64,000 nucleotides of DNA from Cyanophora paradoxa CCMP329 (lineage: Eukaryota > Plantae > Glaucophyta): NCBI GenBank assembly GCA_004431415.1, contig QPMI01000117.1:310001-374000 (forward strand), in the 5' to 3' direction. The translations under genes and the position numbers were made by a program. Under the pieces are notes generated by a model, which was not told the DNA's origin, did not search any database, and worked only from the letters and a program-made list of their open reading frames with translations. This document shows, piece after piece, positions 1 to 30,200 of the stretch; positions within the stretch are counted from its first letter, which is position 1, and each line of letters starts with the position of its first letter.

Positions 1-137
1 TAATCCGCGAGGACGCGAGCGGTCGCGATGCTTAACAGGATATCGACGATCGCGAGGCCGCAGACGTGGAAGTGGACGCCGGTGCCGGGGCGGCCGAGGG
101 AGTCGGAGAGGTGGGAGAGGGAGGCTTGCATTTGCAT
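1..137 (-). CDS. Small viral membrane protein, 3' partial (MQMQASLSHLSDSLGRPGTGVHFHVCGLAIVDILLSIATARVLAD...)
   Basis: Hand-translated, not in the ORF track. The G-x-P-x-x-G-V-H...AIVD-x-L-L pattern resembles small membrane proteins of nucleocytoviruses (from memory). Confidence 0.6.
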   Translation of the reverse strand, partial: MQMQASLSHLSDSLGRPGTGVHFHVCGLAIVDILLSIATARVLAD

Positions 138-155
138 GTGATAAAGGAAGACAAT

Positions 156-614
156 TTAGACGTTGTACTTCTCCTGGTACGCCTTTTTGCGGATCCAGAG
201 AGCATTGGGATGTGTTGGGTCATAATTGATGCTATCCGTGTCTGGGATGTACCGGCCCTTTTTCTTGTTTGCCTCATCGCCATCCCAGTTGCTGATTGTC
301 ATACTCTCGGGATCCTCGCCATCCACGGTTATGATGAGAGGCTGATCCTTATTCCATCCTGGGTAATCGGGGATGGTGAGGCGGTATACATCCTCCCCAT
401 CCTTGGTTGTTCGGGAGTAGCGGATGACATGCGGGCGCGCCATTCCCTTGACACCACCGGGAAGGGTAGCCTCGTGTGTCGGGTTGTACCACTTGCCCTC
501 GAGGGGGTGCGCGGTCTTTCCGGTGTCGGAGCTGCTTCCCATGAGCAAGAAGGCAGCACCGACACCGACAACAAGGAGGAGGATAACGAGGATGAGGACA
601 GCAGAGCCGGCCAT
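156..614 (-). CDS. Hypothetical viral protein with N-terminal transmembrane anchor (152 aa)
   Basis: ATG-initiated intronless ORF with hydrophobic stretch AVLILVILLLVVGVGAAFLLM; co-oriented with neighbours. Confidence 0.75.
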   Translation of the reverse strand: MAGSAVLILVILLLVVGVGAAFLLMGSSSDTGKTAHPLEGKWYNPTHEATLPGGVKGMARPHVIRYSRTTKDGEDVYRLTIPDYPGWNKDQPLIITVDGEDPESMTISNWDGDEANKKKGRYIPDTDSINYDPTHPNALWIRKKAYQEKYNV

Positions 615-648
615 GGGTGATACAGAGGATGCAAGAAAAATCTAGGAC

Positions 649-1644
649 CTAAGACCTACCGATGGCAGTGTTCAGGGCATCAAATGCCAGCCGTAAATCG
701 TTTGCCTGTGCATCAGTTACGGCAGTTCCCATCACATAGCCGCCATTGCGATTATCCGACGGTCCGTGTATTTCTTCAGCTTCACCTGCAGTTCCTGTAG
801 CGCTTCCATGGGAGGTGCTTACTGTAACACTCCAATCCGAAGGAGTGGAATTTTGTGTACCAGTTACAAGAGTGCATTCCGACTTATTGCCATTTGCATA
901 GTAATAAACAGGTGTACCCAGAGCTCCCTGCGTCATAAGCATCAATCCGACAACCGGCACTGTTTGATTTGTGTTCATCTGTCCACCCCATCCGCAGCGG
1001 TTTGCCGTATTGTCGGTGAGAATGTAGTGGCGCGACCACTCCAACCCCCTGAATACGCCCATGAGTCGGGTTGCGGTTGGGGGCAAAGAGAGGGCAAATA
1101 CCCCAAAGTGGAGGTTCGATCCATTGGTAGTTATCGAAGAAAGTTTGACCCCTGTGTCAATAAACCCACCCGCAGTTACAGAGACCCGAGTCCCCGTGAT
1201 TCCTTGCAGTCTTCCATAGGTACAAGCTGTCGCACCAGTCCCCAAAGCTCTATTCGTGTCTGCAGTTGCTCCCAAAACCGTATTGATCGGACAGAGAGCA
1301 GTATTGATATCGGCACCACAGAAGGTATTCAACCGCCTGAGTGCACCCCATGTTCCGTTTGCAGAGTTAATGAGCGCGTTCACAAAAGCAATATGCGCAT
1401 CCTCCTCTGTGGCGTTCACTCCCGCCCCTCCGTTCGCCGCTATGGCCGCTTTCCAATCTGCAACTCTCTTGTTCGCAAATGATTGTGTTCCTTTCAAGGT
1501 CGACAGCCTAACGACCCCAGTGGTTGGGGCAGGGTACGTTGAGAACCCCAGCAGTTTCGAAAAGCGGAACTTGCCAGTCAACCCCATCATTTTCTGCAGG
1601 GATGACATGGTGATCTTTGTTGTCCCCACGGTCTGGACAGGCAT
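649..1644 (-). CDS. Putative virion fibre/structural protein (331 aa)
   Basis: Intronless, G/T/N-rich. N-terminus (VQTVGTTKITMSSLQKMMG..FRFSKL) resembles that of the adjacent fibre protein. Confidence 0.7.
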   Translation of the reverse strand: MPVQTVGTTKITMSSLQKMMGLTGKFRFSKLLGFSTYPAPTTGVVRLSTLKGTQSFANKRVADWKAAIAANGGAGVNATEEDAHIAFVNALINSANGTWGALRRLNTFCGADINTALCPINTVLGATADTNRALGTGATACTYGRLQGITGTRVSVTAGGFIDTGVKLSSITTNGSNLHFGVFALSLPPTATRLMGVFRGLEWSRHYILTDNTANRCGWGGQMNTNQTVPVVGLMLMTQGALGTPVYYYANGNKSECTLVTGTQNSTPSDWSVTVSTSHGSATGTAGEAEEIHGPSDNRNGGYVMGTAVTDAQANDLRLAFDALNTAIGRS

Positions 1645-1702
1645 GAGGTCATGAATCAGACAATCAAATTATTTTTACGGCAGACTGGACCATCGTACCG
1701 AG

Positions 1703-4188
1703 TCACCTCACAAAAACCATCACCGGGTTGCTGTTCTTGAAGGTTGGATGGAGTGCTCCTTGTGTGTTGAATCCATTTTCACCCCAAAAAATCCAGGTTG
1801 GATCGTGAACGCTCCCGGGTGATATCCATGGATCTTCAGCGTTTAAATTGCGGTGGTAAATATAGGCATTTGTGTTTCTGTCGGCGGTCCCCATGTTCTG
1901 AGATGACCCAGTCATTGTAACTACTTTTCCAGATTCAATCGGGAACGTAATCTGGGACAACGGGAAATAAAACCAGTACCCGGTTGTTGTCCAAAAAAGG
2001 ATCTCCGTCACAGCAGCCCCACCTTGGAGCGTATAATTTCTCCAATACCCACCTGTTGTCGGTATACTCCCCGTGCTACTATAAGTCCCATGCGAATAGG
2101 ATAACCCACTCCAAGCTACTTTCCCTGTATCGCCAGCGAACATCCCCCCCGTAGATGGCTGGGCCGCGAACGACATCCACCCCCCGTTGGCGGTTGCCAT
2201 GTCGCAGTAGATTCTGGCGATCGAACCGTCCGCGAGACGGAACTTGTAGGTTCCACTGGATGCGGACGTATTCACGCCTTTGAGCTGGACCGCATTTTGC
2301 GAATAGCTGACCATAAGAGGAGACTCCTGAGAAGCCCCCCCCTCTACGCCCCCCGTGACCGGCCTGACTACATAGGTATACGGGGTGACGAACAGCGCCG
2401 TGGTGTGTCCGTGAACGGGCTTGCAACATTATCTCCCACCTTTGTGCCGTTTCGGTAAACGTTGTAGGATTCAACTACCCCAGGGGTATGGGCGGTCCAG
2501 CTAACAGAGACATGAGGGGATGACGGCGATGGCTGAGATACAGAGATGGTTGTGCCGTACTTGTTCAGAAGCCACCCTCGAACCGCCTGAACATCGCCGT
2601 TTGAGAGGGGCTTGTCCCACACCATCAGTTCGCGGAGGTCAAGATTCGAGTGATTCGCGCCATCCGCGCCCCTGCTGATCCGCATCGTGGAGAATGTTCG
2701 GTTCGACATTGTGAACGTTCCCGTGTGGCTCTCACGGTCTTCGCCGTTCCAGATGTCAAAGGTGTTTGGCGCCAATCGCAATGCCACAACCTGCCAGGCC
2801 CCGGTGATCGGCCCGGGATCGGCATTGTCGTAAACCACCGACGATCCTACCATGTAGGCAACGTGGGTGGATGCGGTTGTTGTGCTCCGTCCAAAGCTGA
2901 TCGTGTCAGCCGGGCCTGTATTGGCAAAGTAGAACAGGCGCTCGGCATTCAGAGCGGCGCTGTGGTAGAAACGGATGACCATGATGGCCGTGAACCCCCC
3001 ACTGGTTCCGATGTCAAAGGTGCTGGATCCCAGGCTCAAGGAATTCCCGTAGGTCGTGGATGTGGATCCAGGGACGCCAAAACGCACGTAAGGGAACCGC
3101 TCATCTCTCTTGACCACCGGCAGGGTGCACCCCCCCAAGGAGGCCGCCGTGGCATTTATTGTCGTTCCCGTCACCCCGGTCCACGAACTGATGGTGGCAT
3201 CTGCGTCCGTCGATGTCAGCGTGTCAACCTGCAGCCACACCCGCGGGGCAAACATGGCGTTGTTCTCCGCGACGAGCGAGCGCCGGACTGTAAGGACATC
3301 GGTATCAGAGAGGGGCTTGTCGTAGATAATGAGCTCGCGGAGGTCCATATTTGAATTATTTGAGGGGCTTGCCGATGCACTGCCTCCTATGTACATATTC
3401 GCAAAATTCCGGTTCGGAAGTGTTGCAGGGAGGTTAGTTGTCGTGAATGTCATGGTGTCACTGGTCCATACTTCACATCTACCGGGCTTCCATCGAAGTG
3501 CAAAAATCTGCCATGAGCCCGTGATGGCAACGTCTACCCCAGACGTCGCATAGTACCCCGTATTCCCGTTAGTCATGGCATACAATACCGATGCCAAAGT
3601 ACCATTACGAGCAACAAGCCAGTTATCCGGCCCCCCTGCCGCACCGCTAATGAAATCGAACACTCTCTCGAAATTTTGGACCGGAGTGTTAAATTTAACA
3701 ACATAGAAGGCCGTACACCCCCCAGTCTCGGCCAACATGAAATCATAGCTTTTACCCCCCCCCGCCAGATTGACCCCGTTTCCATTGGACGTGCTTGTCG
3801 AGCTAGGGGTCGGATTCCCGAAACGAACATAGAAGACGCCGTCGTTCTTGATGATCCTGGGCATACCCGCCCCCCCCATGGCGTACGGCGTTCCGTCAAG
3901 TGCATTTGACCCAGGCCACGTGGTGATCGGAGCACCACTTGCAAGCGAACTGTCGATTGCGCTCGCCTTCAACCAGAACCGAGGCTGGACCCGCTGGTTG
4001 TTCGCGCTCACAGTCCCGAAGAACCTCTGCAGCCTGATGGTCTCCCCCCGCTTCGGGATGTTCGGGTTGTTCGCGGCGTACCCCCTTGGTGCATCGCGGT
4101 ACAGCTCGGACATGCGTAATTTTGCCCCCATCTTGTACTCTGCTGCGATATCCGAGAACCTCAGGCACCCCGTGGTCTGCAGCACCAT
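1703..4188 (-). pseudogene. Frameshifted virion fibre/adhesin: N-terminal anchor motif + 2 LamG/ConA-like repeats + FN3 + fibrinogen-like domain (~827 aa if repaired)
   Basis: ORF 2368..4188 has two internal repeats (PRFWLKA/PRVWLQV...ERVFDF/ERLFYF...DLRELII/DLRELMV). Removing 2 nt at ~2402-2408 completes an FN3 (SPFTDTTALFVTPYTYVVRPV..GVEG) and joins in frame to ORF 1703..2314, which carries YCDM...GGW. Confidence 0.75.
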
Positions 4189-4251
4189 CTCGGGCCTTTG
4201 TACACAGCGCACACAAAATTTCGCGGGCCATCGGGGTTTTGCAGATCTAAC

Positions 4252-5562
4252 TCAATCATCCGGGTCCAGCGCGGGGTCGTACATGGGGTGCCCTCTGGGG
4301 TAGCGGCGGGCCGTCGCCTGGTACTCGGAGACGCTCCGGGCCACGGGTCGCGCCAGCCACGCGTACTCCGGCTTGGGCCTCGGGGGCGGCGGGGGTGGGG
4401 GACCCGACGGGGGAAGGGCGGCGGTCGCTGCGGTCACCGGGGGGGCTGCGGGCCCTGCGGTCACTGCGGTCACTGCGGTTTCCGTCGGTTCCGCGGGGGC
4501 CCCCTTGCGCTTCTTCGCCCTCTCGGCCTTTCTCGCCTCCTTCTCGGCCTTGCGCTTGGTCTCGCGCTCGGCCTGTTTTGCGTCCCACTCCTTCTGTTTC
4601 CGCTCCCCGCGTTTTTTGATGGCCTCGGGTGCCGGCTTCCACCACTCAATCAGGTACTGGAGGCCGCGGATGATGCGGTTCGGGCTGGGGTTCTTGGGGT
4701 CGAAAAGGGACCCGTCCACGGCCGCCGCGATGGCATCCACGAGATCCTTGTCCGTCGGGGGCTGCGTCATCCAGAGAGTGTGCACGCGCTCTTTGAAGTT
4801 GCTCAGTGGCACGAGCGGCTTGTTCTCGATCACCGAAAGCCCGCTCAGGTCCCCATCAAACGGGGAGGGCTCATCAAAGATCGGCTGCTTGTTCGGGGGG
4901 CTATCAAAGAAGCGGCGCCAGTTCTCGCCGATGAACCAGGATTTGTGCCAGACAGTAATAATCTCGCGGGACCCATCCAGTAGCCTGGTCAGCGAAGAGC
5001 CCCCAAGCCGCCTGTTGATAACCTGGAAGAGCTTGCAGACCAGCGAGGCCCAACGGAAATCGTCGTGAGAGTGGTTGGTGCAGAGAGGTATGCCGAGGTC
5101 ACGGTGAACCCCGACCACCGCTTGCTGCTTGTTGACGTACTCGGGGATGTCCTTGTCGCGACAGAACCAGAACCGGCACTTCTCCTCCTTGGGGGCCTGG
5201 GGGGTCCTCTTTGCCTTCAGGGTGCAGGAGTGGCACAGCTTGCCACCCGCCCACTTCATTGCCTTGGATACCCGCTTGATCTCCTTCTTGCATTCCGGAT
5301 TCTCGCACACTTTCTTGACCTGCAGGGGTGTGCGAGGCTTTGGGGCCCAGTTGGGGTCAGCGGCTCTCTTCGCATCTCGCCAACACTTTCTGCAGGGCCC
5401 GTCGGGTTCGTTCTTGACCAGTTTGGGCTGGGTCGGACACGACTTGTTGGGACAGGGGAACCGATGAAACCTGTGTTTCTTGTGATCGTACTTTGGGCCG
5501 AACTTGTCCAGCTCATACTCGTCGAACCCCAGCGTGTCCGCCCGGCCCTTCTCGCACTCCAT
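4252..5562 (-). CDS. Cys-rich (multiple CxxC/CxxxxC) basic protein with Lys/Glu coiled coil and Pro-rich tail (436 aa)
   Basis: ATG ORF with CPNKSC, CRKC, CENPEC, CHSC and CRFWFC motifs. Function unknown, possibly nucleic-acid binding. Confidence 0.75.
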   Translation of the reverse strand: MECEKGRADTLGFDEYELDKFGPKYDHKKHRFHRFPCPNKSCPTQPKLVKNEPDGPCRKCWRDAKRAADPNWAPKPRTPLQVKKVCENPECKKEIKRVSKAMKWAGGKLCHSCTLKAKRTPQAPKEEKCRFWFCRDKDIPEYVNKQQAVVGVHRDLGIPLCTNHSHDDFRWASLVCKLFQVINRRLGGSSLTRLLDGSREIITVWHKSWFIGENWRRFFDSPPNKQPIFDEPSPFDGDLSGLSVIENKPLVPLSNFKERVHTLWMTQPPTDKDLVDAIAAAVDGSLFDPKNPSPNRIIRGLQYLIEWWKPAPEAIKKRGERKQKEWDAKQAERETKRKAEKEARKAERAKKRKGAPAEPTETAVTAVTAGPAAPPVTAATAALPPSGPPPPPPPRPKPEYAWLARPVARSVSEYQATARRYPRGHPMYDPALDPDD

Positions 5563-5614
5563 GGTTTGATGTATGGCAACATAAAGACAGGTTGATGTTT
5601 AACGCGCTCGAATA

Positions 5615-6224
5615 TCGACCAGGTGCGATACTCACAAGAGCCAAGTCCGGCCCCCGTGTCTATATAAGTCGATGGGGGGGCGGCACCAGCTTGGGAGAAC
5701 CGCCCCTTGTCGACACACGAGCAGCCCCCAGACAGCGGGGGTACGCGCTCGACGGACCAAGGTTCAGACCCCGGGGCAGCCCGCACTTCGACCAGGTGCG
5801 ATACTCACAAGAGCCAAGTCCGGCCCCCGTGTCTATATAAGTCGATGGGGGGGCGGCACCAGCTTGGGAGAACCGCCCCTTGTCGACACACGAGCAGCCC
5901 CCAGACAGCGGGGGTACGCGCTCGACGGACCAAGGTTCAGACCCCGGGGCAGCCCGCACTTCGACCAGGTGCGATACTCACAAGAGCCAAGTCCGGCCCC
6001 CGTGTCTATATAAGTCGATGGGGGGCGGCACCCGCTTGGGAGAACCGCCCCTTGTCGACACACGAGCAGCCCCCAGACAGCGGGGGTACGCGCTCGACGG
6101 ACCAAGGTTCAGACCCCGGGGCAGCCCGCACTTCGACCAGGTGCGATACTCACAAGAGCCAAGTCCGGCCCCCGTGTCTATATAAGTCGATGGGGGGCGG
6201 CACTGGCTTGGGAGAACCGCCCCT
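5615..6224. repeat. Tandem repeat, 173-bp unit, ~3.5 near-identical copies
   Basis: Units start TCGACCAGGTGCGATACTCACAAG at 5615, 5788, 5961 and 6133. Each contains CTATATAAG. Confidence 0.97.
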
Positions 6225-6287
6225 GCCCGCTACCCGAGCCCACGCAACACAGGCAAAACATCGCAGACAGGTAGGTCGGTATTCGAC

Positions 6288-7004
6288 TTACATATCGGTT
6301 TCATCATCATCGGGGTACATTTCGGGGTACACGTAGCGGATCACGCGGGACCCCGAGAGGGGGGCGGCGGCTCGCTTGAGGCCCTCGCTGATTGCCATAG
6401 AGTACCAACTGCACAGGTGCTCGTGGGATGTCGACGGGATGTTCTCGGCCTCGAGATGGAGAAACACGATGGGCTTCTTGAACTCGAGCGACAGGGCGGC
6501 CACACGAAACTGCTCTATTTCGTCAGGGCCCTTGTTGACCATGATTGCCACGATGCGGTCCGCCGTCTCCCGGAGGAGGGTGGGGCTGCACATGAAGCAC
6601 CGAGGACCGCGAAGGTAGGCGCGTTCGAAGAGGTGGCTTGGTCCAAACGAGGTCCCAGCCCGCACCAACACATCGTGGGCCATGTCTCTGTTTCTAAGGA
6701 AGCCGGTATCCTCTTTGTCGATGCACTTGCTGCACACCGCCTTGTCGTACTTGACGGTGACTGAGCGGCACTCGTGGCATTTGAAGCCGCCCATGCATAT
6801 CACACACGTACCCCCGCCGCACGGGGCGCAGAAGTCGAACCCGGGGACCGCCTTCTCATCGCACCCATTTCGACAGGGCTTGCATCTGCGACAGAAGCTG
6901 GTCTTGGGCGACTCGACGTTCCTCCCACAGCCCACTGCACACTTGGTTCGCTTGTTGGTCCCGGTAGGGGTGAAGAGCACGGCCATCTCCGCCTGGGACA
7001 GCAT
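6288..7004 (-). CDS. Cys-rich Zn-finger protein with possible degenerate endonuclease-like C-terminus
   Basis: First ATG at 7004 (the track start at 7079 is not ATG). Many CxxC pairs. C-terminal RIVAIMVN...E..RV...KPIVFLHL resembles giant-virus Zn-finger/endonuclease proteins without the acidic catalytic residues. Confidence 0.65.
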   Translation of the reverse strand: MLSQAEMAVLFTPTGTNKRTKCAVGCGRNVESPKTSFCRRCKPCRNGCDEKAVPGFDFCAPCGGGTCVICMGGFKCHECRSVTVKYDKAVCSKCIDKEDTGFLRNRDMAHDVLVRAGTSFGPSHLFERAYLRGPRCFMCSPTLLRETADRIVAIMVNKGPDEIEQFRVAALSLEFKKPIVFLHLEAENIPSTSHEHLCSWYSMAISEGLKRAAAPLSGSRVIRYVYPEMYPDDDETDM

Positions 7005-7190
7005 CTCTCTCGGATATCGCCGCTTACATGGTGCAGAGAAGGAAGTTAGGCGCCGTTTAACGCGCTCATATACCGACACGGGGCAAAGAACTCAAGACAC
7101 TGAGCCCCCCCCTGGGACTATACAGTTATAGGGGCGGTGATCATCGGCTTGAGAGTTTCGACACGTGCCAGAGTGTGAGATTATGCGCGC

Positions 7191-8006
7191 TCACATCGGG
7201 AACATCGGGCTGCTCGGGTTCCACCACCCTGCCCCCGCACCCCCGCCGTGGTTCCGCAGCGGCCCGAAAGCGATCACGTAGAGGTACGACAGGATCATCA
7301 GCGTCTCCAGCACGATATCGCGCGCGCCCCTCCGCCTCGCCATGTCCATCGCGGTCCTCGCCAGCTCGGCGCCCCGTGAGCGGGGCCGCACGGGCCCCCC
7401 GAAGCCCCGCGGGCCCCCAAGGCGTGTCCGCAGGAGCACACGGGGGCGCAGGCGGATGCTGCGGGGCTCCGCGGGCCTCGCGGGTCCGAGCTGCTCGGAT
7501 GCGGCGGGGTAGTCGGGGTACGACGCCTCGGAGCCCGTTTCAATCAAGGGGAGGGGCTGTGCGGTCACGAGGGTGTACGCCTCGAAAACCTCCACCAGAT
7601 CCCTGATGATGGATGGGCCCGTTGAACCGCGCGACACGTCAAATGCGAGCGAGGCGTCCAGGTGCGTTAACAGGACCTGCACCCCGTTGGGCCACGCAGG
7701 GTTGCCAAAGTCGACCCGCCCGGTCTCCGCTGCCCCCCGCACGAAACCACCGGGGTCCGACAGTCCCTTGGATTGCATGTAAGCGAGCACCTCGGCCGCC
7801 CCGAAAACCATGAGCCGCGAGAAGGCGTCCAGCACCTGCCCCTCGTTGTTCCTTGCCACCTCCCTCTCGGCCTCCTCTACGGTACCAAACCGCGCGATGC
7901 CCCTGTTGTAGGCCGCCATCGCCTGCGTGTACCTCAATGCATCTCCAAAGTCGTCCACGGAGTACATGTCCTGGAAATCAGGGAAGCCTTGGTTGCGCAA
8001 GGACAT
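7191..8006 (-). CDS. Hypothetical protein with C-terminal GNAT acetyltransferase-like motif
   Basis: VRPRSRGAELARTAMDMARRRGARDIVLET...LY...FG matches the GNAT motif A/B layout. Start at 8006 chosen; 8060 is an alternative. Confidence 0.6.
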   Translation of the reverse strand: MSLRNQGFPDFQDMYSVDDFGDALRYTQAMAAYNRGIARFGTVEEAEREVARNNEGQVLDAFSRLMVFGAAEVLAYMQSKGLSDPGGFVRGAAETGRVDFGNPAWPNGVQVLLTHLDASLAFDVSRGSTGPSIIRDLVEVFEAYTLVTAQPLPLIETGSEASYPDYPAASEQLGPARPAEPRSIRLRPRVLLRTRLGGPRGFGGPVRPRSRGAELARTAMDMARRRGARDIVLETLMILSYLYVIAFGPLRNHGGGAGAGWWNPSSPMFPM

Positions 8007-8126
8007 CCTCTCTTTCACCCAGCCTCTACATTTTCTCTCAGCCGCCCAATTACAGTCCATCTGTAACCACCCGCCAGCCCCGCGTTCAGCACCCGCCGAA
8101 CCTTCTCCCCGCATAGAGTACCAAAA

Positions 8127-8552
8127 ATGGAGCCCTTCCGGTCCGCCGGCGACGTCCATTGCCGCTGCGAGGAGTGCGGGGGCGCCCCTCTCGGCCAGCG
8201 CTGCCCCGGGCCCGAACGCCACTGCAGCATGTGCCTCGACGAGGGCGGCGGCCACGAGCCCCTGGACGCTTTGGGAATCCCGACCGGCCCCGAGTTCCGC
8301 ACGTGCGACTGCGCCCTCTGCGACCAGCGGGGCGTCGGCTACTACCCCGACTGCTGCATCGAGGACGGCAGCGACCCCGAGGCCGTCGTCGAGTGCCCCG
8401 AGTGCATGGTTTGCGAGAAAGGAACCTGGACGCACCGCTGCGTCTGCGATGTCTGCAGCGGGTACTGCAAGGACAGCGCGGGAGGCCCGTGCAGGGTCTG
8501 CGTGTACGGGAACGGATCGCACGTGGACTGGTGCGACGGCCCGTGCGGGTAG
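8127..8552 (+). CDS. Very Cys-rich small metal-binding protein (141 aa)
   Basis: A-rich context CCAAAAATGG and >20 Cys in CxC/CxxC motifs. Confidence 0.7.
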   Translation: MEPFRSAGDVHCRCEECGGAPLGQRCPGPERHCSMCLDEGGGHEPLDALGIPTGPEFRTCDCALCDQRGVGYYPDCCIEDGSDPEAVVECPECMVCEKGTWTHRCVCDVCSGYCKDSAGGPCRVCVYGNGSHVDWCDGPCG

Positions 8553-8687
8553 GTAGGGGGTCCCTTGGCGTGTGTCGAGTATTTGTGCGAGTCTGAGTCA
8601 TTTCAACAAACCCGGGGTTCGACAAAACCTAGTTCTGCCAGACCAAGGTTTCCTAATCCTTCTCGGCGTTCGAGTTGCCAAGATATA

Positions 8688-8987
8688 TTATTTCAGCAAC
8701 CCCTTCAGCTCTTGCATGCCATCCAGGAACGCGCGGATGTCCTGTCTCATCCTTGCTTGGACCGCCAGCCTTTGCATGGGCTCCAGCGGCGCCATCGTGG
8801 CCCGCACGGCCCCTAGCACCATCTGCGCATTGCTGTCCATGACCTCCGTGAGCACGAGCGCCTCCATCCCGAAGAGGGGGTTCGTCCGGGCCCGCGCGGC
8901 CACCCGGGGCATCGTGTGGTATCGGTACTCCCAGTGGGCATCCAAAAACTCGTAGAGGAAGAGGTCGGGGCGTGGGTTCAGGCTCAT
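8688..8987 (-). CDS. Hypothetical helical protein (99 aa)
   Basis: ATG ORF MSLNPRPDLFLYEFL..., divergent from the NblA-like gene with a 46-bp gap. Confidence 0.65.
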   Translation of the reverse strand: MSLNPRPDLFLYEFLDAHWEYRYHTMPRVAARARTNPLFGMEALVLTEVMDSNAQMVLGAVRATMAPLEPMQRLAVQARMRQDIRAFLDGMQELKGLLK

Positions 8988-9033
8988 GGTTGCAGACGGG
9001 GCTAGATTTTTGCGCACCCCTTAAAACAGAGAG

Positions 9034-9300
9034 ATGCCCTTCGTCTCCCCCCTCGCCGTCCGCTGTTCCGCGGGATCCCCCGATACCCCCCCACCCCCCG
9101 GCGGCGGCTACGACCCCGCGCGGCTCTCGATGCACCAGGAGGTGCACCTGCGCCAGTTCACCTTTGACGTTGCGCGCATGGACCGGCCCGCGCTCGAGTC
9201 CCTGGCCGTGAAACTCGCCGAGAACCTCTACAAATCCGCCAACATCGCGCAGGCCCTCCACGAGCGGGGCGGCAACTTCTGGCGCGAGGGGACGGACTGA
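9034..9300 (+). CDS. nblA: NblA-like phycobilisome degradation adaptor with putative plastid transit peptide (88 aa)
   Basis: LSMHQEVHLRQFTFDVARMDRPALESLAVKLAENLYKSANIAQAL aligns without gaps to the NblA consensus as I recall it (LSLEQxFxxRxFxxQVxxMSxxQAxxxLVKLYEQM...YQEL). N-terminal MPFVSP...VRC-S resembles Phe-type transit peptides. Confidence 0.65.
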   Translation: MPFVSPLAVRCSAGSPDTPPPPGGGYDPARLSMHQEVHLRQFTFDVARMDRPALESLAVKLAENLYKSANIAQALHERGGNFWREGTD

Positions 9301-9336
9301 GCTGCCCTACCCCCACCCTTTTGCTTTTCGTGGATC

Positions 9337-9898
9337 TCAGCAAGCCGCTATCATTTCATTCATAGGCTCGAGAAACTGCGAGGGGCTGAAGGGGGTATCG
9401 GGGACGTAGCTGGGGTAGAAGGGGAGAGGGGTAGAGACGCAAAAGGCCGGGGGGGTAGGTGCCGGCGTCGGAGGCAGGAAGGGGGTACAGGGGATAGGAG
9501 AGGGGGCGGGGGCGGGAGCGGGGGCGGCCTCCGGGGCGGGCTCCGGGTCCTCGTCCACGAGCGTCTTCCTCACCCGCACCGGCACAAAGGGGACGCGCGG
9601 GGCCTCAAGGGCCTGGCGCTGGCCCGTCCGCGGATCGTAGAGGTACCACGCCACGACGCTCGGGGCCAGCTCCTCCGCGCGGACCTCCCAGGGCGCCACC
9701 GCCTCGTAGGCCACGCACTCGCCGCGGGGGCCCCAGAGGGTCCACATGTACCACTTGTACTCGACCGGCGCAGGAGAGTGGGCGCGGGCCTGAGTTAAAG
9801 TTAGGGGATGGATGGGCAACAGGAGGCGTAGGGGCGCGCACCATATCCATGAGGCCGCTCTCAAAGTCCTCGAAGGCGACGGAAGCGGCAGAGGCCAT
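9337..9898 (-). CDS. Spliced viral hypothetical protein (exons 9898-9842, 9789-9337); Trp-rich core, Pro-rich tail
   Basis: A 52-nt intron at 9841-9790 (GTGCGC...CTAAC...TCAG) joins MASAASVAFEDFESGLMDM in frame to ARAHSPAPVEYKWYMWTLW... Confidence 0.75.
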
Positions 9899-9985
9899 TT
9901 GAAGATGCCTGGAACGAATTCGGGCTGCTTGGAGAATGTGAGGCTGAATGCGATCCGACTCGGGTGTCTATGGGATCCTAGGGTA

Positions 9986-10306
9986 TTAGGAGCCTCGGCC
10001 CGAGGAGCCTAGGAGCCACGGCCCGAGGCGCCTAGGAGCCCGAAAAAAAACAATCATTGGTCCGTCACCGGGGCGTGAGTCACATGTGGTAAGTGCGGCA
10101 CGTGGGTTGCGTGAGTCACGTACGGTAAGCGCGTCACGTGCGTCACCCGAGTCCCGTGCGTCACGCGGGTCAGCTGAGTCACGTGCGGGGGGGGTACGTG
10201 GCCGCCTAGGCAATAATGGGCCGAAATTTCGCCGATAATTGTTTTTTTTCAGGCTCCTAGGCTCCTCGGGCGGTGGCTCCTAGCATCCTCGGCCCGAGGC
10301 TCCTAA
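9986..10306. promoter_or_regulatory. 69-bp inverted repeat (9986-10054 / 10238-10306) enclosing an AP-1/G-box cluster; bidirectional enhancer or origin-like element
   Basis: Arms match 63/69. Spacer has TGAGTCA at 10076, 10112 and 10175, and CACGTG at 10099, 10135 and 10180. Lies between divergent ATGs at 9898 and 10416. Confidence 0.8.
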
Positions 10307-10415
10307 GACCCCCCGCGGACCACAAAACCGGCGCCGGCCCCCAGTCTGGCTCACTCTTGCCTGCCCCAAATTTACGCCGCGCCGCTTCCGAGTCGCTTCC
10401 CTTTGCCGTATAACC

Positions 10416-11304
10416 ATGTCGGACTCTGTCTCCCCCGCCGCCGCCTCCCGCGTCATTGATATCATCGACCTCACCGAGTGCCCCTCCGACGACGAGAAGG
10501 GGCTCGGGCCTGCCATGGCCCTCCCCCGCTCCCGCTCTACCCCCGCGGCGGCCTCCTCTTCCGCCTCTGCCTCCTCTGCCTCCTCTGCCTCCCTTATCCC
10601 CTCCGGCCCCGGAATCGATCCGGAGTTTCCCTTCGAGAAGGAGCCGCCCTGCGACATGAAGGAGAACGCCGAGGTCCGCCGTTTCCCTCTGTCTCACGCA
10701 AGCCCCTCTGCCTCTATCTCACGCGAGCCCTTACGCAGCTCTACATGGCCTGGCTCAAGTTCCGCTGCCCCCACCGGACCGCGACGATCGAAGCGGTCGC
10801 CAAGGAGCTCGGCGAGATGACCGAGGAGGCGCGGCAGGCCACCTTTGCCTTCGTGGACGGGAGGCGCCCCGCCCTTATCGAGGAGGTCGAGGCCATCGTG
10901 ACCGCCGCCGAGGCCGCCTCGATCGTCGTCAAGATGGAGAAGGAGCTCAGCCCGCCCGCTTCGCCCCCCGCCCCCACCGCTGACCCTGAGGTGAGCCCCT
11001 TTGCCTCTACCCTTGCGCCCCCCTCTGAGCCCGTACCCCGTAGATCGAGTCGCCCGAGCCCGAGCCCGAGTCGGAGCCCGAGTCGGAGAACTCGGAGCCC
11101 GAGTCGGAGGACGAGAAGGCGGCAAAGAAGGTGGCCAGGAAGGCGGCCAAGGCGGGCAAGAAGGCGCTCAAGGAGTCGTCGCCCACCAAGAGCGCGCTCA
11201 AGGGCCGGTGGTCGCAGAAGCGGAAGGCCTCCGTCACCTTCCCCGCCGGCACCCCCGACTCGCTCTCCGTAGAGGGCAGCCGCCTCCGCCGCCGCCGCCT
11301 GTAG
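10416..11304 (+). CDS. Spliced viral nuclear regulator-like protein, 256 aa (exons 10416-10673, 10739-10990, 11044-11304)
   Basis: Two phase-0 GT-AG introns restore one frame. Contains SIM-like VIDIIDLTECPSDDE, SUMO consensus VKME, acidic EPES repeats and a basic K/R tail. Confidence 0.8.
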
Positions 11305-11952
11305 ATGTATCGAATTCCTGTCTCGGCCACTTATGCGTCAGTGTTTCTCCGATTTTTTTGCAATGGTAAAGTGCCCCAAATCGTCCAATTCACTCTCTCT
11401 CTCGCCTTTGGAGTCCCTTTCCAACACGAGATCGCTTCGGTCGCAATGGGACACACATCTTCATTTCGTCCCAGGTCAAAGATCGGCAGGTGGTTTGCGA
11501 GAAAGCTTTACACGCCACGGATCATACAGAACCAGATCCTTGAACAAACAATGGCAACCTGCGCAATCACCAGGACTTGGGCACCGATTCGCGACCTCAT
11601 AAACATCATCGACTTTGCGCGCATTGGTCCGGTCTGCTTGGACAAGTGGATGCTCTCCGCCATTTCATGTGGCTGTTCGGACATTGTTATGCATCTCTGT
11701 CCGCTGGGCACACGTGCGTCCGGCCTTGACCTGGAGAATGCCTTTGTTTCTCGCACATCCGATCTACAACGCAAGATCACAGAGAGCGAGATCGCCGGAG
11801 AGATGGGTCTCACAGTGTCTTACAGAGAGGATTCATTTCTGGCGGATTGCGTGGAAATGAGGGTGATTGCTGCATGCCTACAGTTATCACAACAGACAGA
11901 GCAGATATGCCGGACCATGTGCCCAAGAGTTAGCCAGTATATTTTCACGTGA
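11305..11952 (+). CDS. Hypothetical viral protein (true start uncertain)
   Basis: Intronless 215-aa ORF of lower GC filling the gap between genes. Confidence 0.55.
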   Translation: MYRIPVSATYASVFLRFFCNGKVPQIVQFTLSLAFGVPFQHEIASVAMGHTSSFRPRSKIGRWFARKLYTPRIIQNQILEQTMATCAITRTWAPIRDLINIIDFARIGPVCLDKWMLSAISCGCSDIVMHLCPLGTRASGLDLENAFVSRTSDLQRKITESEIAGEMGLTVSYREDSFLADCVEMRVIAACLQLSQQTEQICRTMCPRVSQYIFT

Positions 11953-12185
11953 TTCTTTTCGAATCTCTACAGACACCCTCCCTCCGAGCCCTCTGTAGCC
12001 TCCGAGGGGCTCCAGCGGGGCCGCACGCACGCCGCTGACACCGCTGGGTACGACGGACGGGGTTGTAATCGCGGAAGACCGCCACGACCCGCCAAGTCCA
12101 AAAAGGGGCCCGCCCGGATTCGAGGCGGGTGCAAAGTGGGACCCGCGCGCCACCCGGGGCCCGCGTTCACCGAGGCGGGAACAGA

Positions 12186-12941
12186 ATGCCCGCCGAGATC
12201 GCAGCGGCCTTCTCGGCACTGCGCGTGGCATCGCAGGTTCTCCGCGCAGCCCGCCTGGCCGCCCCAGTCATGTCGCTGCTGCTGCGTGCCCTGTCGGGGG
12301 TCCCGGACGAGGCGAAGATCGTGCGCGGGATCAAGGACGCGGACCCGGCCCTCGTCGCCCCCCAGCTCCGCTGCATCCCGCGCCGGCTCCAGCTCCGGGT
12401 CGCGCGGGCCCTCTGCGGCGACCTCGTGTCCTGCGCGTGCATCCCGAGCGAGCACAGGCCGCACCTGCCCGACCTGTCGCTCCTGTCGCTGGGGCTCGCC
12501 GTGGCCGCCGAGACCCGCCTGCCCCGCGCGAGGGCCGTGGTGGACGCGCTGATCGACCTGGGCTACAGGGCGGGCGCGGACTCGGGCGCCAACCTGGCCG
12601 CCGCGGTCCTCCTGGGCTGGCGGGGCGTGGTGCTGCGGTTGGTGGACGAGTGCGGCGTGCCGGTCAACGGGACCCCCGCCGAGTTCGCGACGGGCGTGCA
12701 GACCGTGCGCATCCTCTCGGGTCTGCGGACGACGCGCGCGGCCGACGTGCCCGCAGTGCTGGACTGCGTGGAGGCCCTCGTGTACGGGCGCGGGATGCGG
12801 CTGTGGCTGCCGGAGCTCGAGGGGAACCTGCGCGCCACCACCGACGAGGGCACCCGCGCGCGCCTCTCCCTGATCGCGCGGTCCCCCGAGCTCGTGTACG
12901 GCCCCCGCGATGTCGCATCCGCCCCGACTGAATGGCAGTGA
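12186..12941 (+). CDS. Hypothetical helical protein with weak ankyrin-like segments
   Basis: ATG at 12186, GC3-rich coding pattern, segment VVDALIDLGY...LAAAVLLGWRGVVLRLVDECGVPVN. Confidence 0.65.
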   Translation: MPAEIAAAFSALRVASQVLRAARLAAPVMSLLLRALSGVPDEAKIVRGIKDADPALVAPQLRCIPRRLQLRVARALCGDLVSCACIPSEHRPHLPDLSLLSLGLAVAAETRLPRARAVVDALIDLGYRAGADSGANLAAAVLLGWRGVVLRLVDECGVPVNGTPAEFATGVQTVRILSGLRTTRAADVPAVLDCVEALVYGRGMRLWLPELEGNLRATTDEGTRARLSLIARSPELVYGPRDVASAPTEWQ

Positions 12942-12993
12942 GAGGCGCGTTCCCCTTGTACACTAAGGAATCTGCACCATTTCACGCAAGCCA

Positions 12994-13287
12994 ATGCCTC
13001 CCATCCATGCCCCGCGCCCACTGACGGACGACGAGCGCCGGCACTTGCTTGAGCGCCTGGATCTGCTGGTTACGAGTGTCTGGAACGCAGCGGCCCCGAT
13101 CGCATGGGCCAAGGATACGGTGGGCAGGAGCGTCCACCAGAACCTACAGTACGTCTACTCGAACCTCTCACAGGAGATACTGCCCCTGATCGATGCTATG
13201 CTAGGCACCTGGTATGCCGAGCGGCTCCCTATCTCCCTGATGTCAGCCCGGGTGGATGCTCGGGGCGGCGACTTTAGCGACCTGTGA
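12994..13287 (+). CDS. Hypothetical viral protein (97 aa)
   Basis: ATG ORF with globular composition; last ORF before the GC-rich terminal repeats. Confidence 0.6.
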   Translation: MPPIHAPRPLTDDERRHLLERLDLLVTSVWNAAAPIAWAKDTVGRSVHQNLQYVYSNLSQEILPLIDAMLGTWYAERLPISLMSARVDARGGDFSDL

Positions 13288-13731
13288 TTGCTCCTCTGTC
13301 TGAATACAAATTGCTCGGGCTCTAGAAGGGCTCCGAGGCTCTAGAAGGCCTCGCATACACCCCGCTGACACCGCTGGGTACGACGGACGGGGTTGTAAGC
13401 GCGGAAACCCCCAGAAACCCCCAGAAGGGCCGTACCCCGGCCCCGCTGACGAGAGGGGCCCCCTCCCGGCCCGGGTACGCAGAAGGGCCGCCCCCCGGCC
13501 CTCTTCCGCACAAGGGCCCGCCCCCGGCCCCGCTGACGAGAGGGACCCTTGCCCCCCCTCTCCCCCCCTCCGCCCCCCCGCGGGCCGGCCCTCGTCCCCG
13601 CGCCCCCCCCGCAACCCCCGCAACCCTCTGGGTCCCCGCGGGCCCCATTCGCCGATGCGGTCCCCCGGGCCCATCGCCTCCAATGGGATTTGGGGGGTAG
13701 CGAGAGGGCGGCGGGGGGGTACGCAAAGTGA

Positions 13732-18253
<4,522 letters not shown>

Positions 18254-24200: not shown

Positions 24201-27200
24201 TTGAGTGGCGAGGGGCGCCGGCAGTACGGCGAGTGAAGCGCTCGGCATCCAGCAGTCCGGCCGTGTGCCGATTCTCCGTGGCGTTTCAGGCTCACTCCGG
24301 GTGCGTCGACACGTAGAAACTCTATGGCCAGCGCCTGCACCTTTAAATCCGATGCTACCCTCCGTTCTCGCCCTTCGCCCCTCCCCCCCACGCCCGCCTC
24401 GTCTCCCCCTCTCATTTCCTACAGCCTCGTACGATGACGCTCATCCTCGGGCCTGCCCTTTCGGGAAAGGTTGGATTTTTCACTTCCATCCATTAATCCT
24501 TGTACTAATTTGTCTCTCGCAGTCCGCTCTGCTAAGAATTCTCGCCAAGCAACACGGCGAGCTCCGCCGGGCTGGCTTTTTGGACGGCAAGGTTTGGTCT
24601 CTTCATATAAACTTCTTGTTTCGTGCTTGAAGTCTATCTTCGGCTTTTAATAAGCTAAAACCATCAGGTGTATCTGGACGGGAAACCGGCAGCGTCTCGT
24701 CCGGACTTCAACCGTCGGGTCATCTTTGTTTCTCAGCTGGACTCGGTGCACTACCCGCAATTGACGGGTACGCTTCACGCTTCGTTCGCCTTTCTCGTAC
24801 GAGGCGCTAGCGCTCACTCTCCCGCTCAGTGGAAGAAACGCTCCGCTTTGCCGCGCGGATGAAGAGGCCGCACGGCAGCGAGCGCGACAGCGGCGACATC
24901 AGGAGTGCCGACGTTCGCGCGATGAATGCGGGGATGGCCATGCACTTAAGCCGGGTGAATCGCATCCTCATATGTATTTTAGTATACATCTGCTGTCGGC
25001 AAACCGCCTCATTTTTACTGATCGCGATGTTTCGGGCACAGGTAAAGGACTCGATTGTGGGCGACCAGGCCGTTCGAGGAATTTCGGGAGGGGAGAAGCG
25101 CCGACTGAGCGTCGCGGTGCAGCTGGCCGCGGTACGTCAGTAAGAGTTTCCTCTAGTAAAAGAGATCAGATTATAATGTCCAATTCCTAGTAAAAGTTTC
25201 AATAGTCGGACCAGAGAGAAGTCCTCTTGACCAGGCGCCGGCCTCGCAGGGCGCCTATTCCGTCATCCTGATGGACCAGCCCACGGATGGCGCGTCTCGC
25301 TTCGCTTCCGCTCAGAGAGAGTTCGATTCTTCCTTTTAATTCCTGGCTCATATATTGTGTGCAGGGCTGGACGCCTCCGCCTCGCTGGAGCTGTGCCGCG
25401 CGCTCCGGGAGCTCTCGTTGACGGGCGCCTCCGTCCTCTGCAGCCTCCTGCAGCCGTCCTGGTGCGCTCGAAATCGGGACCCTTGTTCTTCATTCGAATT
25501 CCGGCCATTCCTGAGTGTCGTCGACGCTGTCCTCGACCAGGGAGCTCTACGAGATGTTCGACCGGCTCATCCTCCTCTCCAACGGCGACTGTCTTTACAA
25601 CGTGCGCTTTGCTCTGAACCTCGACAGGACTTTGAACAAGCATCCGTTCCAACATGAACATCTGCTTCACAGGGTCCCGGGCGACTGGCCCCAGTCGAGC
25701 ACTTCGAGGCGCACGGGTTCACGAACGCCGAGGGGCTTAGCCCCCCCGATTTCCTGGTGTCTGTGGCCGCGAAAGTCGCGGCAGGCGGCGCGGCCGCCCA
25801 CGACCGCCTGCCGCTTCCGGCGTCTCTGCCGTCGGCTCCCAAAGCAGACCCTCCCGATCAAGCCGACATTTCCGACATTTCCGAGGTTCCGCGTGCGAGG
25901 GCGGAGGCCTTCTCAGCTCGGCGCTCACTTTTTCACAGAGCCGCATCGAGCTCAAGCGGCGGTATCCGAGGCCGTGGCACGCACAGGCAAGCTTAATTAT
26001 ATAAGCGAAGCGACCTTGAGCCATTGAGTCAACCGCGGCTGAGCTTGCGGGTCTGTTCGCGCAGATCAGAATCCTGTACGCGAGGTCAAACCAGCTGCTT
26101 TTCCGCAATCCGAAGCCCGCCGTCACGCGATTCGTCGAAACCGCCGTGATTTCGTTCGTCCTTGCCACGCTTTTCTGTAACGTGCGCAGTTCTTGCCGAT
26201 TTGCGTGTGGGCGATTGCCGCGCCTGACGCTCCCCTCCGCCTTGCAGACGCCGGCGACGATGCAGGGGGCCACGAATCGCATCGCCTTTTTCCAAGTCGG
26301 CCATGCTCTGCTTTTCAACGTGTGCTTCAGTTAGCGCTTCCCTGATCGTTGGCGTCGCTTCAGGCCTCCCTCCTGGTGTGGGCGTTCACCGCTTTGAATA
26401 AAATCGAGCCCAACTACGAGCACCGAAGGTGCGAGCGCGAGCTCGAGCCTGCTCTGATCTTCCCTCGGATTTGACTGATGGAGGATGGGAAGGGTGATGC
26501 ACAAGCAGGCGGAGGAGCGCATGTACCGACCCGACTTGGTGCGCCGCGATCGCGAGCGTGCGCAGCGCTCTGCGGCCCGAGCTAACCGACGTCGCAGTGG
26601 GTGATAGCTCACACGCTCTCGGAGATCCCGCGCCTTTTTTGCGAGGTGCCGTTTAATTTGCAGATCCCGTAGCTAGCTATAGGTTTTTAAAACCGTGTGC
26701 GCGACGCGGCCGCCAGGTTCTCCTCTTCTCTCTCATCGTCTACTTCGCCGTGGGCCTTCAGCCCGCCGGCTTCCGCTTCGGTCGATTCCTCCTCGTGATT
26801 TTTCAGGTCCGAGACGACTGCCAGTGTGTGCTTGCTTGCAACGCCATCGCTTATGATCACACGCGACTCCAGATGACGTTGATTGCCGACGCATCGATTC
26901 TGTGCGTTGCTTATAATTAGCCGTTGGACAGCCGTTGATACGTGCATATCTGACATTGGAGAATTTTGCAGATTTCTCTCGCTCTCATTGCCGCGCAAAG
27001 AGATGTGCTCCTCGCTGGCTCCAGTGGTTCCAGCTATCTTTTTTATTTTTGGTGGCTTTCTCGTGCCCAAGACCGCGCTGCCGTCTTGGTCAGTCCTCAT
27101 TTGCTGGCGGCGCTGCTGCCTAAACGTAAGCTGCTGCTGATAGTCTCGTTCAGGTGGGTCTGGGCGCGCTATCTGAGTTTCTATTCGTATCCGCTCGAGG

Positions 27201-30200
27201 CCCTGGCAATAAATGGTGAGCGTCAAGGCGATGCATGTGCAAACTTTTCGATCTGACACGAGCCCCGCCTGCACTTTTTCTCCCGCGGCCACCGCGGCCG
27301 ACAGAGCTTCTAGATATTCCCCTAAGCGATGTTCCGGGCGGGGGCACGGCGGTGCTGGAAGCGTTCGGGTTCCAGGCTTCTGCGGAGTGGTACGGGTACG
27401 CACACCTACCGCATCGTCTCGGCTTTGAATTCGAATCCGCGTCGGATTCGTTCGACGCCGCGCCGCAGGTACAACGTGCTCGTCTCCTTCGCCTACTGGA
27501 TTCTCTGGCTCGTCGCCTCGATCTTGGCGGCCCTCCACGTCCGGTCGAGGCGGCCGTTCTCCTCCGTTCCCGTGTCGACTTCGGAGCCGGCTGCAGCTAA
27601 CACTGCAGCCAGCCCCGGAGGCTCCAAGCGGTCGCTACCGGTATCCTCTAGATCTGCATCTGCGCTGGCGCCCACCATTCCCACTCGAACGGCTACTCGA
27701 AACAGCGAAGCGTCTGCTACCGCAGTGGATCCCTCCGTTCACGTTCACGTGTCCGTGGATGTGGACGTTCTCGGGCCGGCCCCCGTCTCGTCGGCCCTCA
27801 CTTTCGTCGATGTATCGTACTTTGTGCCTGGCGAGCACGAAGGTATATATATTCCGCCGCGTTCCGCTTGAACCGAGACGGCTCGAGCTTGAACGTTTAA
27901 TTTCACTTCCAGGAGAAACGAAGCGGCTCCTGGACAACGTGACGGGGGTCGTGGAGAGCGGGACGCTGACGGCGCTCATGGGCGAGTCCGGTTCGGGAAA
28001 GACGTGCGTATACATGAACCCCTTTGATTTGAATTTGAATTTCGCTGTTTTCAAAACTCTGCTTTGACGGTTGCGGCCGTGGCCATGCCAGCACCCTGCT
28101 GGATGTTCTTGCGAATCGGAAGACCACAGGAAAGGTGCGGTTTGATCTTTCTCTCGCTCGAAATTTGCTTTGATGCTGAAAGAAACCGACGACCAGGTTA
28201 CGGGCGAGATCAAGCTGAACGGGCGGCCCCGCGACGACAGCTTTAAGCGCGTCAGCGGCTACGTCGAGCAGGTGCGCGTCTCACTTCCGAGGCTTCGCAT
28301 CACCCGCCGAATCTAACGCGTGCGCTATCCCTTAGTTTGATCTGCTCTTCCCGACAATGGTATGCTCTTTGCGTAATTAGATGTAATTATAATGGATATT
28401 GGATGTAATCAGATAAGGGCTTAGGCCTCCGCGCTCGCTGACGGGCGCCGCCCAGACGGTGCGCGAGGCGGTCGTGCTGTCGGCCCTCCTGCGCCTGGAC
28501 GCTCGAACGCCCCGGGGGGACAAGATCGCCGCGGTCCGTACGCGTTGCCCTGCCGCGCCGCAGCAGCGCGGCTCCGCTGCGCGAGCCCATTTCATTTAAT
28601 TTCGGCGAGGCTGATCACGAGAGTCGCAGGCGGAGGGCGCACTAAGAGACCTCGACCTCGAGCCGAGCGGCCGCCTGGTCATCGGGACCCTGCAGGTGCA
28701 TCCGCTCAGCTCTAGATCTAGATCTAGGTCTCTGGTGGCCGCGGCCTCTGATGTTTGGTCCCAGGGCGGAGGCATTCCGGTCGAGGTCGGGCCGGGACTG
28801 CGCGTCCATCATAGACGGAGTTCGCCGGCTAAGTACACTGATCATGAGCGCGCGCGCAGATGCGAAAGCGGGTCTGCATCGCCATGGAGCTCGTCCCTCG
28901 ACCGGCCATCCTCTTCCTGGATGAGGTTCGACTCGCTTTTTAGAACAGAAATACAAACGCGTTCAGCTGTAGTACTAGTACTGACTGGGGCGACTTCTCT
29001 ACATTAAACAGCCGACCACCGGGCTGGACTCGACTGCCGCGCTCCGCATCGGACAGGTGGCCTGGAATCGGCGCTGAATTTGATCGCAGAGCACTAGCCC
29101 GCCCGCGTGAAGCCTGCAGCTGACTGCCCGTTGCTCGCAGCTTCTGCGGCGCATCGCCGGCGCCGGACAGGCCACTGTCGCCACGATGCAGTGCGCTTTT
29201 ATAGTTACCTTGTCTGCCCATGTCTGATCCCGATCTGCTGGACGCGCCCCGACCTGCTGTCTTGCTTCGCAGCCAGCCGTCCGGCCAGCTGTTCGGTCTC
29301 TTCGACCGGCTGATCCTACTCAGAAGCGGAGGCGTCCCCATCTACTCCGGTGCGTGCGCGAAGAAAGGATATATAGAAGCCTGGCGAATATATATGTAAT
29401 ATTAGTAGAAGCTCCCGGCTATTCGCGGCCGAATGTTGAAATCGCGACGTCGACTCGCCGCATGCAGGGGAGCTTGGACAGCGTGGCAGCGGATTCTTCG
29501 CGCACCTCGCGACCCTCGGTGCCGCCGGCGCTGCCGCCGTCCGGCCATGCATGGTCCGAAGCTTGTTGTAATTCCCGTGGCGCAGGATTCGAGCTCCCGC
29601 CCTTCAAGAACGCGGCGGACTGGGCCATCGAGATCGCGGGGGGGCGGGCCTTCGAGGCGGGCGCTGGCGCCGGCGCCGGTGCCGGCGCCGCCGCGGAGTG
29701 CGACGCGGACGTCGACGCCGTCGCTGCTTCTTTCCGCGAGGGTCCCCCAGGGCGCCGGCTCCGCGACCGCGTCGCGGCTCTGGACGCGCAGCGTGCGCCA
29801 GCCAGCGCTCCTTCCTTATAATCAAAAGCTTCGCCTTTTTGAAAAGACTGCGTTTCGCAGTGGTCTCCGCGGGGCCCGCCCCCGCGCCGGAACGGCCGCC
29901 GTTCGCCCGCCAGGCGCGCGCGGCCCGCGGCTTCTCGCCCTCGCTCTCCTGTTCGAGCCCTGGGCGTCCGGCCCGCTCAGGTCGCGATTCTCGCGGGGCG
30001 CAAGCTTCGCTGGCTCTGGCGCGAGCGCGAGACCCTCGCCGTCCGCGTCCTCAGGCCCGCGCGCTGTCCCCCATCCATCGACTCTGCCCGCTCCCACATT
30101 GCTGCTCTTGTTGAATACTGCCCCTCCGCAGCAACGTCCTTGTGGCCGTCATCGCCGGTACCGCGTGGTTCGCTTTCGAGGCCTTTAGATCTGGCCTTCG

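Follow-up and report, generated by a model that had tools for sequence, protein, structure and literature searches.

Two putatively spliced genes around a mirror-image spacer in a putative endogenous virus of Cyanophora paradoxa: a candidate host-read bidirectional promoter

The window, a stretch of 64 kb from the genome of the glaucophyte alga Cyanophora paradoxa, starts with a gene-dense region in which most open reading frames (ORFs) lack introns. Two genes of this region, here called A and B, are predicted to be spliced; they are transcribed away from each other from a spacer in which two inverted-repeat arms enclose a motif-rich core (Table 1). An ORF resembling NblA converges on gene A from its left side.

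Table 1. Features of the gene A/gene B locus and its surroundings, in window coordinates
Feature	Position	Strand	Remarks
Gene-dense, mostly intronless region	1..13780		Putatively the right-hand portion of an endogenous DNA virus
NblA-like ORF	9034..9300	+	88 amino acids, intronless; converges on gene A; core at residues ~27-75
Gene A exon 2	9337..9789	-	Aromatic-rich N-terminal half, proline-rich C-terminal half
Gene A intron	9790..9841	-	52 nt; GTGCGC donor, CTAAC branch-like word, CAG acceptor
Gene A exon 1	9842..9898	-	19 codons, acidic-hydrophobic; matches the start of P0005
Decayed mirror flank, gene A side	9930..9980	-	Initiator-like YYANWYY, A at 9939
Left inverted-repeat arm	9981..10060		Two internally palindromic 23-nt units plus a partial third; A8 tract
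Core	10061..10231		171 nt, non-palindromic, motif-rich; predicted shared enhancer
Right inverted-repeat arm	10232..10311		89% complementary to the left arm
Decayed mirror flank, gene B side	10312..10362	+	Initiator-like word, A at 10353
Gene B exon 1	10416..10673	+	SUMO-interacting-like motif with acidic tail at residues 13-27
Gene B intron 1	10674..10738	+	65 nt
Gene B exon 2	10739..10990	+	Predicted four-helix segment, low confidence
Gene B intron 2	10991..11043	+	53 nt
Gene B exon 3	11044..11304	+	Acidic stretch, lysine-rich helix, two NLS-like basic clusters

The region that carries both genes is likely an endogenous DNA virus of C. paradoxa. Its right edge is approximate and its left edge lies at or before base 1, outside the window. 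Fibre proteins with LamG (E 4.8e-07) and fibrinogen-like domains were recognized among the dense ORFs in a domain search. Polinton-like viruses and giant endogenous viral elements have both been described from C. paradoxa (PMC12220804, PMC8502044, PMC12344493), and, as far as the accessible parts of these papers go, the present element shares with them the host, the dense intronless ORFs and the carbohydrate-binding fibre proteins. It differs from them in that searches of the Pfam/NCBIfam type revealed no capsid, ATPase, polymerase or integrase gene within the window. This holds for the double jelly-roll capsid, packaging ATPase and integrase as well as for the HK97-type capsid, terminase and portal, the element seemingly extending beyond the window, with its left end, and hence one of any two terminal inverted repeats, outside it. 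Herpesvirus genes, mirusvirus genes and a replication gene were likewise not found in the window. Because no hallmark virus gene is present there, a viral origin can only be inferred. Genes of viral origin in C. paradoxa tend to be methylated and silent, according to the accessible text of one of these reports (PMC12344493).

Several other observations were made in the window. A single fibre gene with a probable frameshift near 2420, either a mutation or an assembly error, apparently accounts for both the LamG ORF and the ORF of the fibrinogen-like type (1703-4188, minus strand); since this gene looks split, the present viral copy may be decaying. The N-terminus of the fibre gene resembles that of ORF 649-1644 (34%), and no related loci were found for either the LamG ORF or the shared N-terminus. 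A search of a phage collection gave two weak, unrelated matches, and no Rfam match was obtained over 1-15000. The ORFs 8127-8552 (plus strand) and 6288-7004 (minus strand) are cysteine-rich, with many CxxC pairs, and have no family match. The ORF at 11447 has a GC3 of 0.59. Near the inferred right end a non-coding block occurs twice (about 12000-12170 and 13330-13480, some 75 nt nearly identical), the second copy being followed by 29-nt repeats at 13422-13538. Further to the right lie a fragment of a non-LTR retroelement (39697-43550, with weak RVT_1 and zf-RVT matches and a poly-A run near 43540) and a local duplication (around 59000-59770 and 63025-63790, approximately 4020 nt apart and 87-97% identical) of what we take, from reading the sequence, to be an RCC1-like repeat gene.

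The first-pass annotation had placed one intron in gene A and two in gene B (9790-9841, 10674-10738 and 10991-11043). All three have GT-AG ends at exactly these positions and restore the reading frame, which results in spliced open frames of 169 amino acids for gene A and 256 for gene B. The C. paradoxa models P0005 (gene A) and P0001 (gene B) in EukProt, themselves predictions, are identical to the spliced products. Genes of this alga contain 9.2 introns on average with a mean length of 86 nt, according to the part of the genome report that was available (PMC6704402). Splice-site matrices were trained on 26 introns, selected by eye, of the approximately 59 short ones that our parse gave for a PDR-type ABC transporter gene of the host in the same window (24434-31850, plus strand). 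The donor GTGCGC of the gene A intron is the commonest one in this set (8 of 26). The three introns scored 20.1, 18.6 and 17.6, against a leave-one-out median of 17.3 for the 26 host introns, and ranked 5, 23 and 41 among 2427 candidates in 1-13800; these scores alone do not discriminate, because many decoys score equally well. When codon scores were added, a blind spliced parse returned exactly the three introns. The gain in parse score from splicing was 105.6 in gene B and 21.1 in gene A, and at most 12.2 in each of the remaining 13 of 15 ORFs, where it came mostly from trimming frames that were already open. The exons of both genes have a GC3 of 0.79-0.98 and positive codon scores, and eight of the nine reading frames through the introns score negatively for codon use. 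Codon adaptation as such is not special to the pair, as three intronless ORFs have a CAI of 0.72-0.81 versus 0.70 and 0.78 for A and B.

The paralogue of gene B represented by model P0002 (94-95% identical) shares the junction of intron 1. At the position of intron 2, 18 related residues, the last of which is Gln, are read in frame in P0002, which implies, judged from the protein, a 54-nt version of the 53 nt present here. An intron at this position would account well for a length difference of one base that leaves the downstream frame intact; alternatively, one base may have been lost from coding DNA here, since the P0002 model codes through. On these sequence criteria the case for splicing is strong for gene B and moderate for gene A, for which an unspliced frame of 136 amino acids is also present. 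Of 24 runs, 20 contain the stretch, none of them recorded as RNA. Among four of the 24 that were presumed to be RNA and compared with 6300-10540, X21 and X24 have no contig over the genes, and the assembled contigs of X2 and X3 carry unspliced sequence, such contigs marking presence only. Taken together, it is highly probable that the introns of both genes are real. If so, the host spliceosome is needed, and dependence on host Pol II would presumably follow. The survey covered coding introns in the 15 ORFs within the window. The earlier statement that A and B are the only two spliced viral genes fits the window as far as coding introns go, the other 13 ORFs being open without splicing, and does not extend to the whole element, which seems to continue past the left window edge.

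Introns and codon use of a host-like kind would also be seen if A and B had been captured from the host, or if they were viral genes intronised passively while residing for long in an inactive relic, with an ordinary promoter between them that plays no part in a viral programme. The probable frameshift in the fibre-like gene fits a relic. In the accessible parts of the respective papers, introns in endogenous giant viruses are said to have earlier been taken as erosion (10.64898/2026.10.09.758095), and intron-generating transposons are reported to populate integrated viruses in dinoflagellates (PMC12166617). Passive gain, however, would not be expected to cluster all three introns beside the motif-rich element and none in 13 neighbouring ORFs, and the repeat listing contains no repeat between the three introns, so they do not look like copies of each other. 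Capture from the host is countered by the lack of a cellular homologue of either gene among proteins of 0.55-1.75 times the query length. Within these length limits gene A recovered only itself (one match among seven candidates), and gene B only itself and the 94-95% copy (two matches among 34 candidates). Capture or passive intronisation is therefore considered rather improbable.

The composition of the two proteins suggests that they may be nuclear regulators. The product of gene B looks nuclear, with residues 13-27 similar to a SUMO-interacting motif, basic clusters similar to nuclear localisation signals and an acidic tract; the acidic-hydrophobic start of the gene A product may hint at a nuclear regulator too. 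The structure model of the gene B protein has a pLDDT of 54 and no confident fold, a fold search gave no match, the best ESM Atlas score (0.77) yielded nothing usable and the NCBIfam matches were of the low-complexity type only. For gene A, neither a domain or fold match nor related loci elsewhere were found. Profile and fold searches did not reveal a likeness of either protein to herpesvirus immediate-early proteins.

The spacer had originally been described as a palindromic enhancer. That description does not apply to the core, in which, close to the axis, only 3-5 of every 20 nt match their mirror position; it is the arms that mirror each other. With a length of 80 nt and 89% complementarity, they are longer than any other inverted pair in the window. 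Beyond the arms the mirror symmetry, centred on base 10146, extends gap-free over a further 51 nt, with 25 of 51 positions identical, a value reached in 7 of 10000 shuffles and at none of 1696 other offsets. It stops where the two initiator-like words are located, each at 207 nt from the axis. The word at 9939 is the only one in 9899-9975, and the gene B flank contains three in 10317-10415; such words are short, with a base rate of 0.004 per base. Symmetry that ends at initiator-like words is the layout expected of a duplicated back-to-back promoter. The head-to-head arrangement around an inverted repeat, as described before, is real, and so is the repeat; the layout as such is shared with the ORFs 8688-8987 (minus strand) and 9034-9300 (plus strand). 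These form a second divergent pair, 46 nt apart, with a compact, A/T-rich spacer.

The core contains TGAGTCA at 10076, 10112 and 10175, CACGTG at 10099, 10135 and 10180, and GTCAC seven times. In 2000 shuffles these counts were reached 0, 4 and 0 times, respectively, and the cluster is unique among 1120 windows. The three TGAGTCA copies are not independent, because they sit in a tandem repeat of 27-36 nt. AP-1 is the site of Fos and Jun in animals. The words on which the earlier designation AP-1 element was based are indeed present, but in an alga TGAGTCA is better called a GCN4-like bZIP site, and CACGTG a G-box/E-box site.

With approximately 330 nt and terminal inverted repeats of 80 nt, the spacer could also be viewed as a MITE, a small DNA transposon of the non-autonomous kind, whose insertion between two genes would have introduced the motifs. 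Two other contigs of run X3 (6025 and 5383 nt) have 39 nt of an arm at one of their ends. One of them continues with words of the gene B flank (a 10-mer and a 6-mer), which points to a paralogous locus and not to a lone insertion; the other does not. The arm-bearing contigs suggest that related loci may exist elsewhere in the genome. The arm patterns had no match in viral or metagenome contigs. As no target-site duplication was seen by eye at the arm ends, the symmetry extends 50 nt past the arms and there is no second copy in the 64 kb, insertion of a MITE is very improbable.

Other genes of the element are preceded by different words. A 13-nt word, present only at 5597 and 7055 (minus strand) ahead of ORFs 4252-5562 and 6288-7004, is a candidate for a viral promoter class. 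A 10-nt word is found only at 636, upstream of ORF 156-614, and at 9002, in the spacer of the pair 8688-8987/9034-9300. Both words are absent upstream of A and B and, within the 64 kb, outside the element. TATATAA and TATAAG are not found upstream of A or B either; they occur only in a 173-nt repeat and at 2080. This repeat (5615-6224) consists of 3.5 tandem units that are 99% identical, with TATATAA in each unit, and is a candidate origin or enhancer.

From these features we consider the spacer to be, probably, a mirror-duplicated bidirectional promoter of A and B that is read by the host. An inverted duplication would have placed one copy of a proximal promoter on each side of a shared core. 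The TGAGTCA and CACGTG words would be bound by bZIP and bHLH factors of the host, and the A8/T8 tracts would hold the region open. With transcription starting near 9939 and 10353, the leaders would measure about 41 and 63 nt, and both transcripts would be spliced in the nucleus. The palindromic 23-nt units of the arms may be repressor or activator sites, possibly for the product of A or B. That the element's other genes have different upstream words would agree with a staged programme.

Iterated palindromic units and A8 tracts are also what might be expected of a replication origin or genome-resolution site, with the 23-nt units bound by a viral initiator, the A-tracts serving in unwinding and the promoters on either side being of secondary importance. 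Origins can lie between divergent promoters. A DNA hairpin of -113 kcal/mol, a value without a shuffle baseline, is predicted over 9975-10317, and the lytic origins of herpesviruses also act as enhancers, according to the accessible text of one report (PMC12780183). The halt of the symmetry at the initiator-like words is what duplicated promoters would show, no replication gene is present in the window to pair with the element, and the 173-nt tandem repeat is another candidate origin; no origin in the window stood out by base-composition skew. We therefore consider it unlikely that the inverted repeat is mainly an origin, although the roles of origin and promoter are not exclusive.

Herpesvirus immediate-early genes are typically spliced, with a TATA box ahead of the start and products that transactivate later viral genes, and divergent layouts around oriS or oriLyt occur in these viruses; it was with them that the locus had first been compared. 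The likeness, as far as the accessible parts of two reports go, is that a host-factor enhancer rich in motifs adjoins putative regulatory genes while promoters elsewhere are simpler (PMC4893493, PMC12780183). The locus differs in that no herpesvirus homologue was found, the host is an alga and TATATAA and TATAAG are absent upstream of A and B. Herpesvirus immediate-early genes are defined, in the text available, by being transcribed without new protein synthesis (PMC4893493). For this locus, herpesviruses would serve as an analogy only.

The nearest precedent would be the latency genes of punuivirus, a giant endogenous virus of Chlamydomonas, in which, according to the accessible part of its description, introns are present in 61 of 506 genes, and these genes are enriched in the phase that precedes the production of virions, with an odds ratio of 4.96 (10.64898/2026.10.09.758095). 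Latency genes of this type are also characterised by 6mA at the start site. Both are integrated DNA viruses of algae, or putatively so, in which a minority of genes has host-like introns and a separate promoter word is used elsewhere. In the present case introns are predicted in only 2 of 15 ORFs, and the two share a single mirror-duplicated element; that part of the punuivirus report makes no mention of bZIP sites. The likeness concerns introns and promoter words, no sequence kinship having been demonstrated. The chance that A and B are expressed earlier than structural genes, or in latency, is about even. Since the intron genes of punuivirus precede virions, upkeep of latency is as plausible a role as triggering the exit from it. 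That the locus is an actual switch for reactivation of the integrated virus, as had been proposed, is a special case of a host-read bidirectional promoter, and a rather unlikely one. The reading that we favour overall, with a probability of roughly 0.55, is that of a bidirectional host-read promoter driving two spliced genes in an early or latent phase.

The ORF that converges on gene A merits separate treatment. NblA is a protein that dismantles the light-harvesting antennae, the phycobilisomes, by binding phycobiliproteins and setting off their degradation. The only family matched by the ORF was PF04485 of Pfam, with 16.2 bits (E 0.014) for the whole protein and 18.2 bits (E 0.0036) for the core, both below the gathering cut-off of 25 bits. 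In a sequence search of the PDB, NblA (1ojh) was the second of two matches (E 0.8), and it became the first of two (E 0.27) with a two-sequence profile. The structure of the protein was modelled as a helix-loop-helix (pLDDT 83). In a comparison with 48161 chains, NblA structures ranked 1, 3 and 7, with 21-25% identity and Z-scores of 6.1, 5.7 and 5.1, values below 8 being common for helical hairpins and unrelated chains lying within 1 of those of NblA; the top match, 1ojh, aligned over 52 residues with an rmsd of 2.2. A known phage/host pair of NblA proteins scored a Z of 4.4 according to the accessible text of its report (PMC11477984). Foldseek gave no match for the model, and NblA clusters in the ESM Atlas at 0.84 with the core constitute a lead only. 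A homodimer model scored 0.69, compared to 0.02 for the best of three controls, with 89% agreement of contacts and a pLDDT of 78; this mark was passed by 21 of 30 solved pairs and by none of 23 single chains, but the pass may reflect memorisation by the model because a solved NblA structure exists. The metagenomic protein P0006, found by a full HMMER search and missed by a word-index search, is 58% identical over the core and matched NblA only (14.1 bits, E 0.068). It keeps the first four residues with Phe3 as well as Arg-Cys-Ser at 10-12. A second HMMER match, P0007, was dropped as a repetitive fish protein. No related loci were found for the ORF.

These models make it very likely that ORF 9034-9300 is NblA-like, and a viral origin of the ORF is equally so. 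It shares with the NblA proteins of cyanobacteria, phages and red algae (PF04485) a short helix, a loop and a long helix, and the predicted homodimer. It differs from them in its N-terminal extension with Phe3, in its occurrence in a likely eukaryotic virus and in its lack of similarity to NblA of phage Ma-LMM01 in BLASTP. The extension of approximately 26 residues, with a stop codon just upstream, resembles a transit peptide. Cyanelle transit peptides, in the part of their description that was available, typically have an early Phe, within residues 1-10, together with Val, Arg and Ala near the cut and a median length of 63 (PMC4510345), and a nuclear NblA has been described from a red alga, according to similarly accessible text (PMC3594237). 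From its sequence, import of the protein into the plastid seems a reasonably good prospect; for a protein that is viral, plastid-imported and NblA-like at once, the odds are roughly balanced. A report of a eukaryotic virus with NblA was not found in the literature searched, the scope of which excluded most subscription papers. That one virus combines a mirror promoter for its first genes with a neighbouring NblA aimed at the plastid is a more tentative proposition, somewhat less likely than not, and one that would be unlikely if an actual reactivation switch is included.

How endogenous viruses of protists control their own expression is largely open, and the present element of 430 nt, which has predicted start sites and discrete motifs and resides in a culturable alga, makes the question testable. 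A mirror-duplicated promoter would be an unusual way to co-regulate two genes. In annotation practice, endogenous small viruses are taken as intron-free, as was done, according to its accessible text, in a large survey (PMC10120064). If its product is imported, the NblA-like gene would carry a strategy of cyanophages, the dismantling of phycobilisomes, across primary endosymbiosis into a eukaryotic virus.
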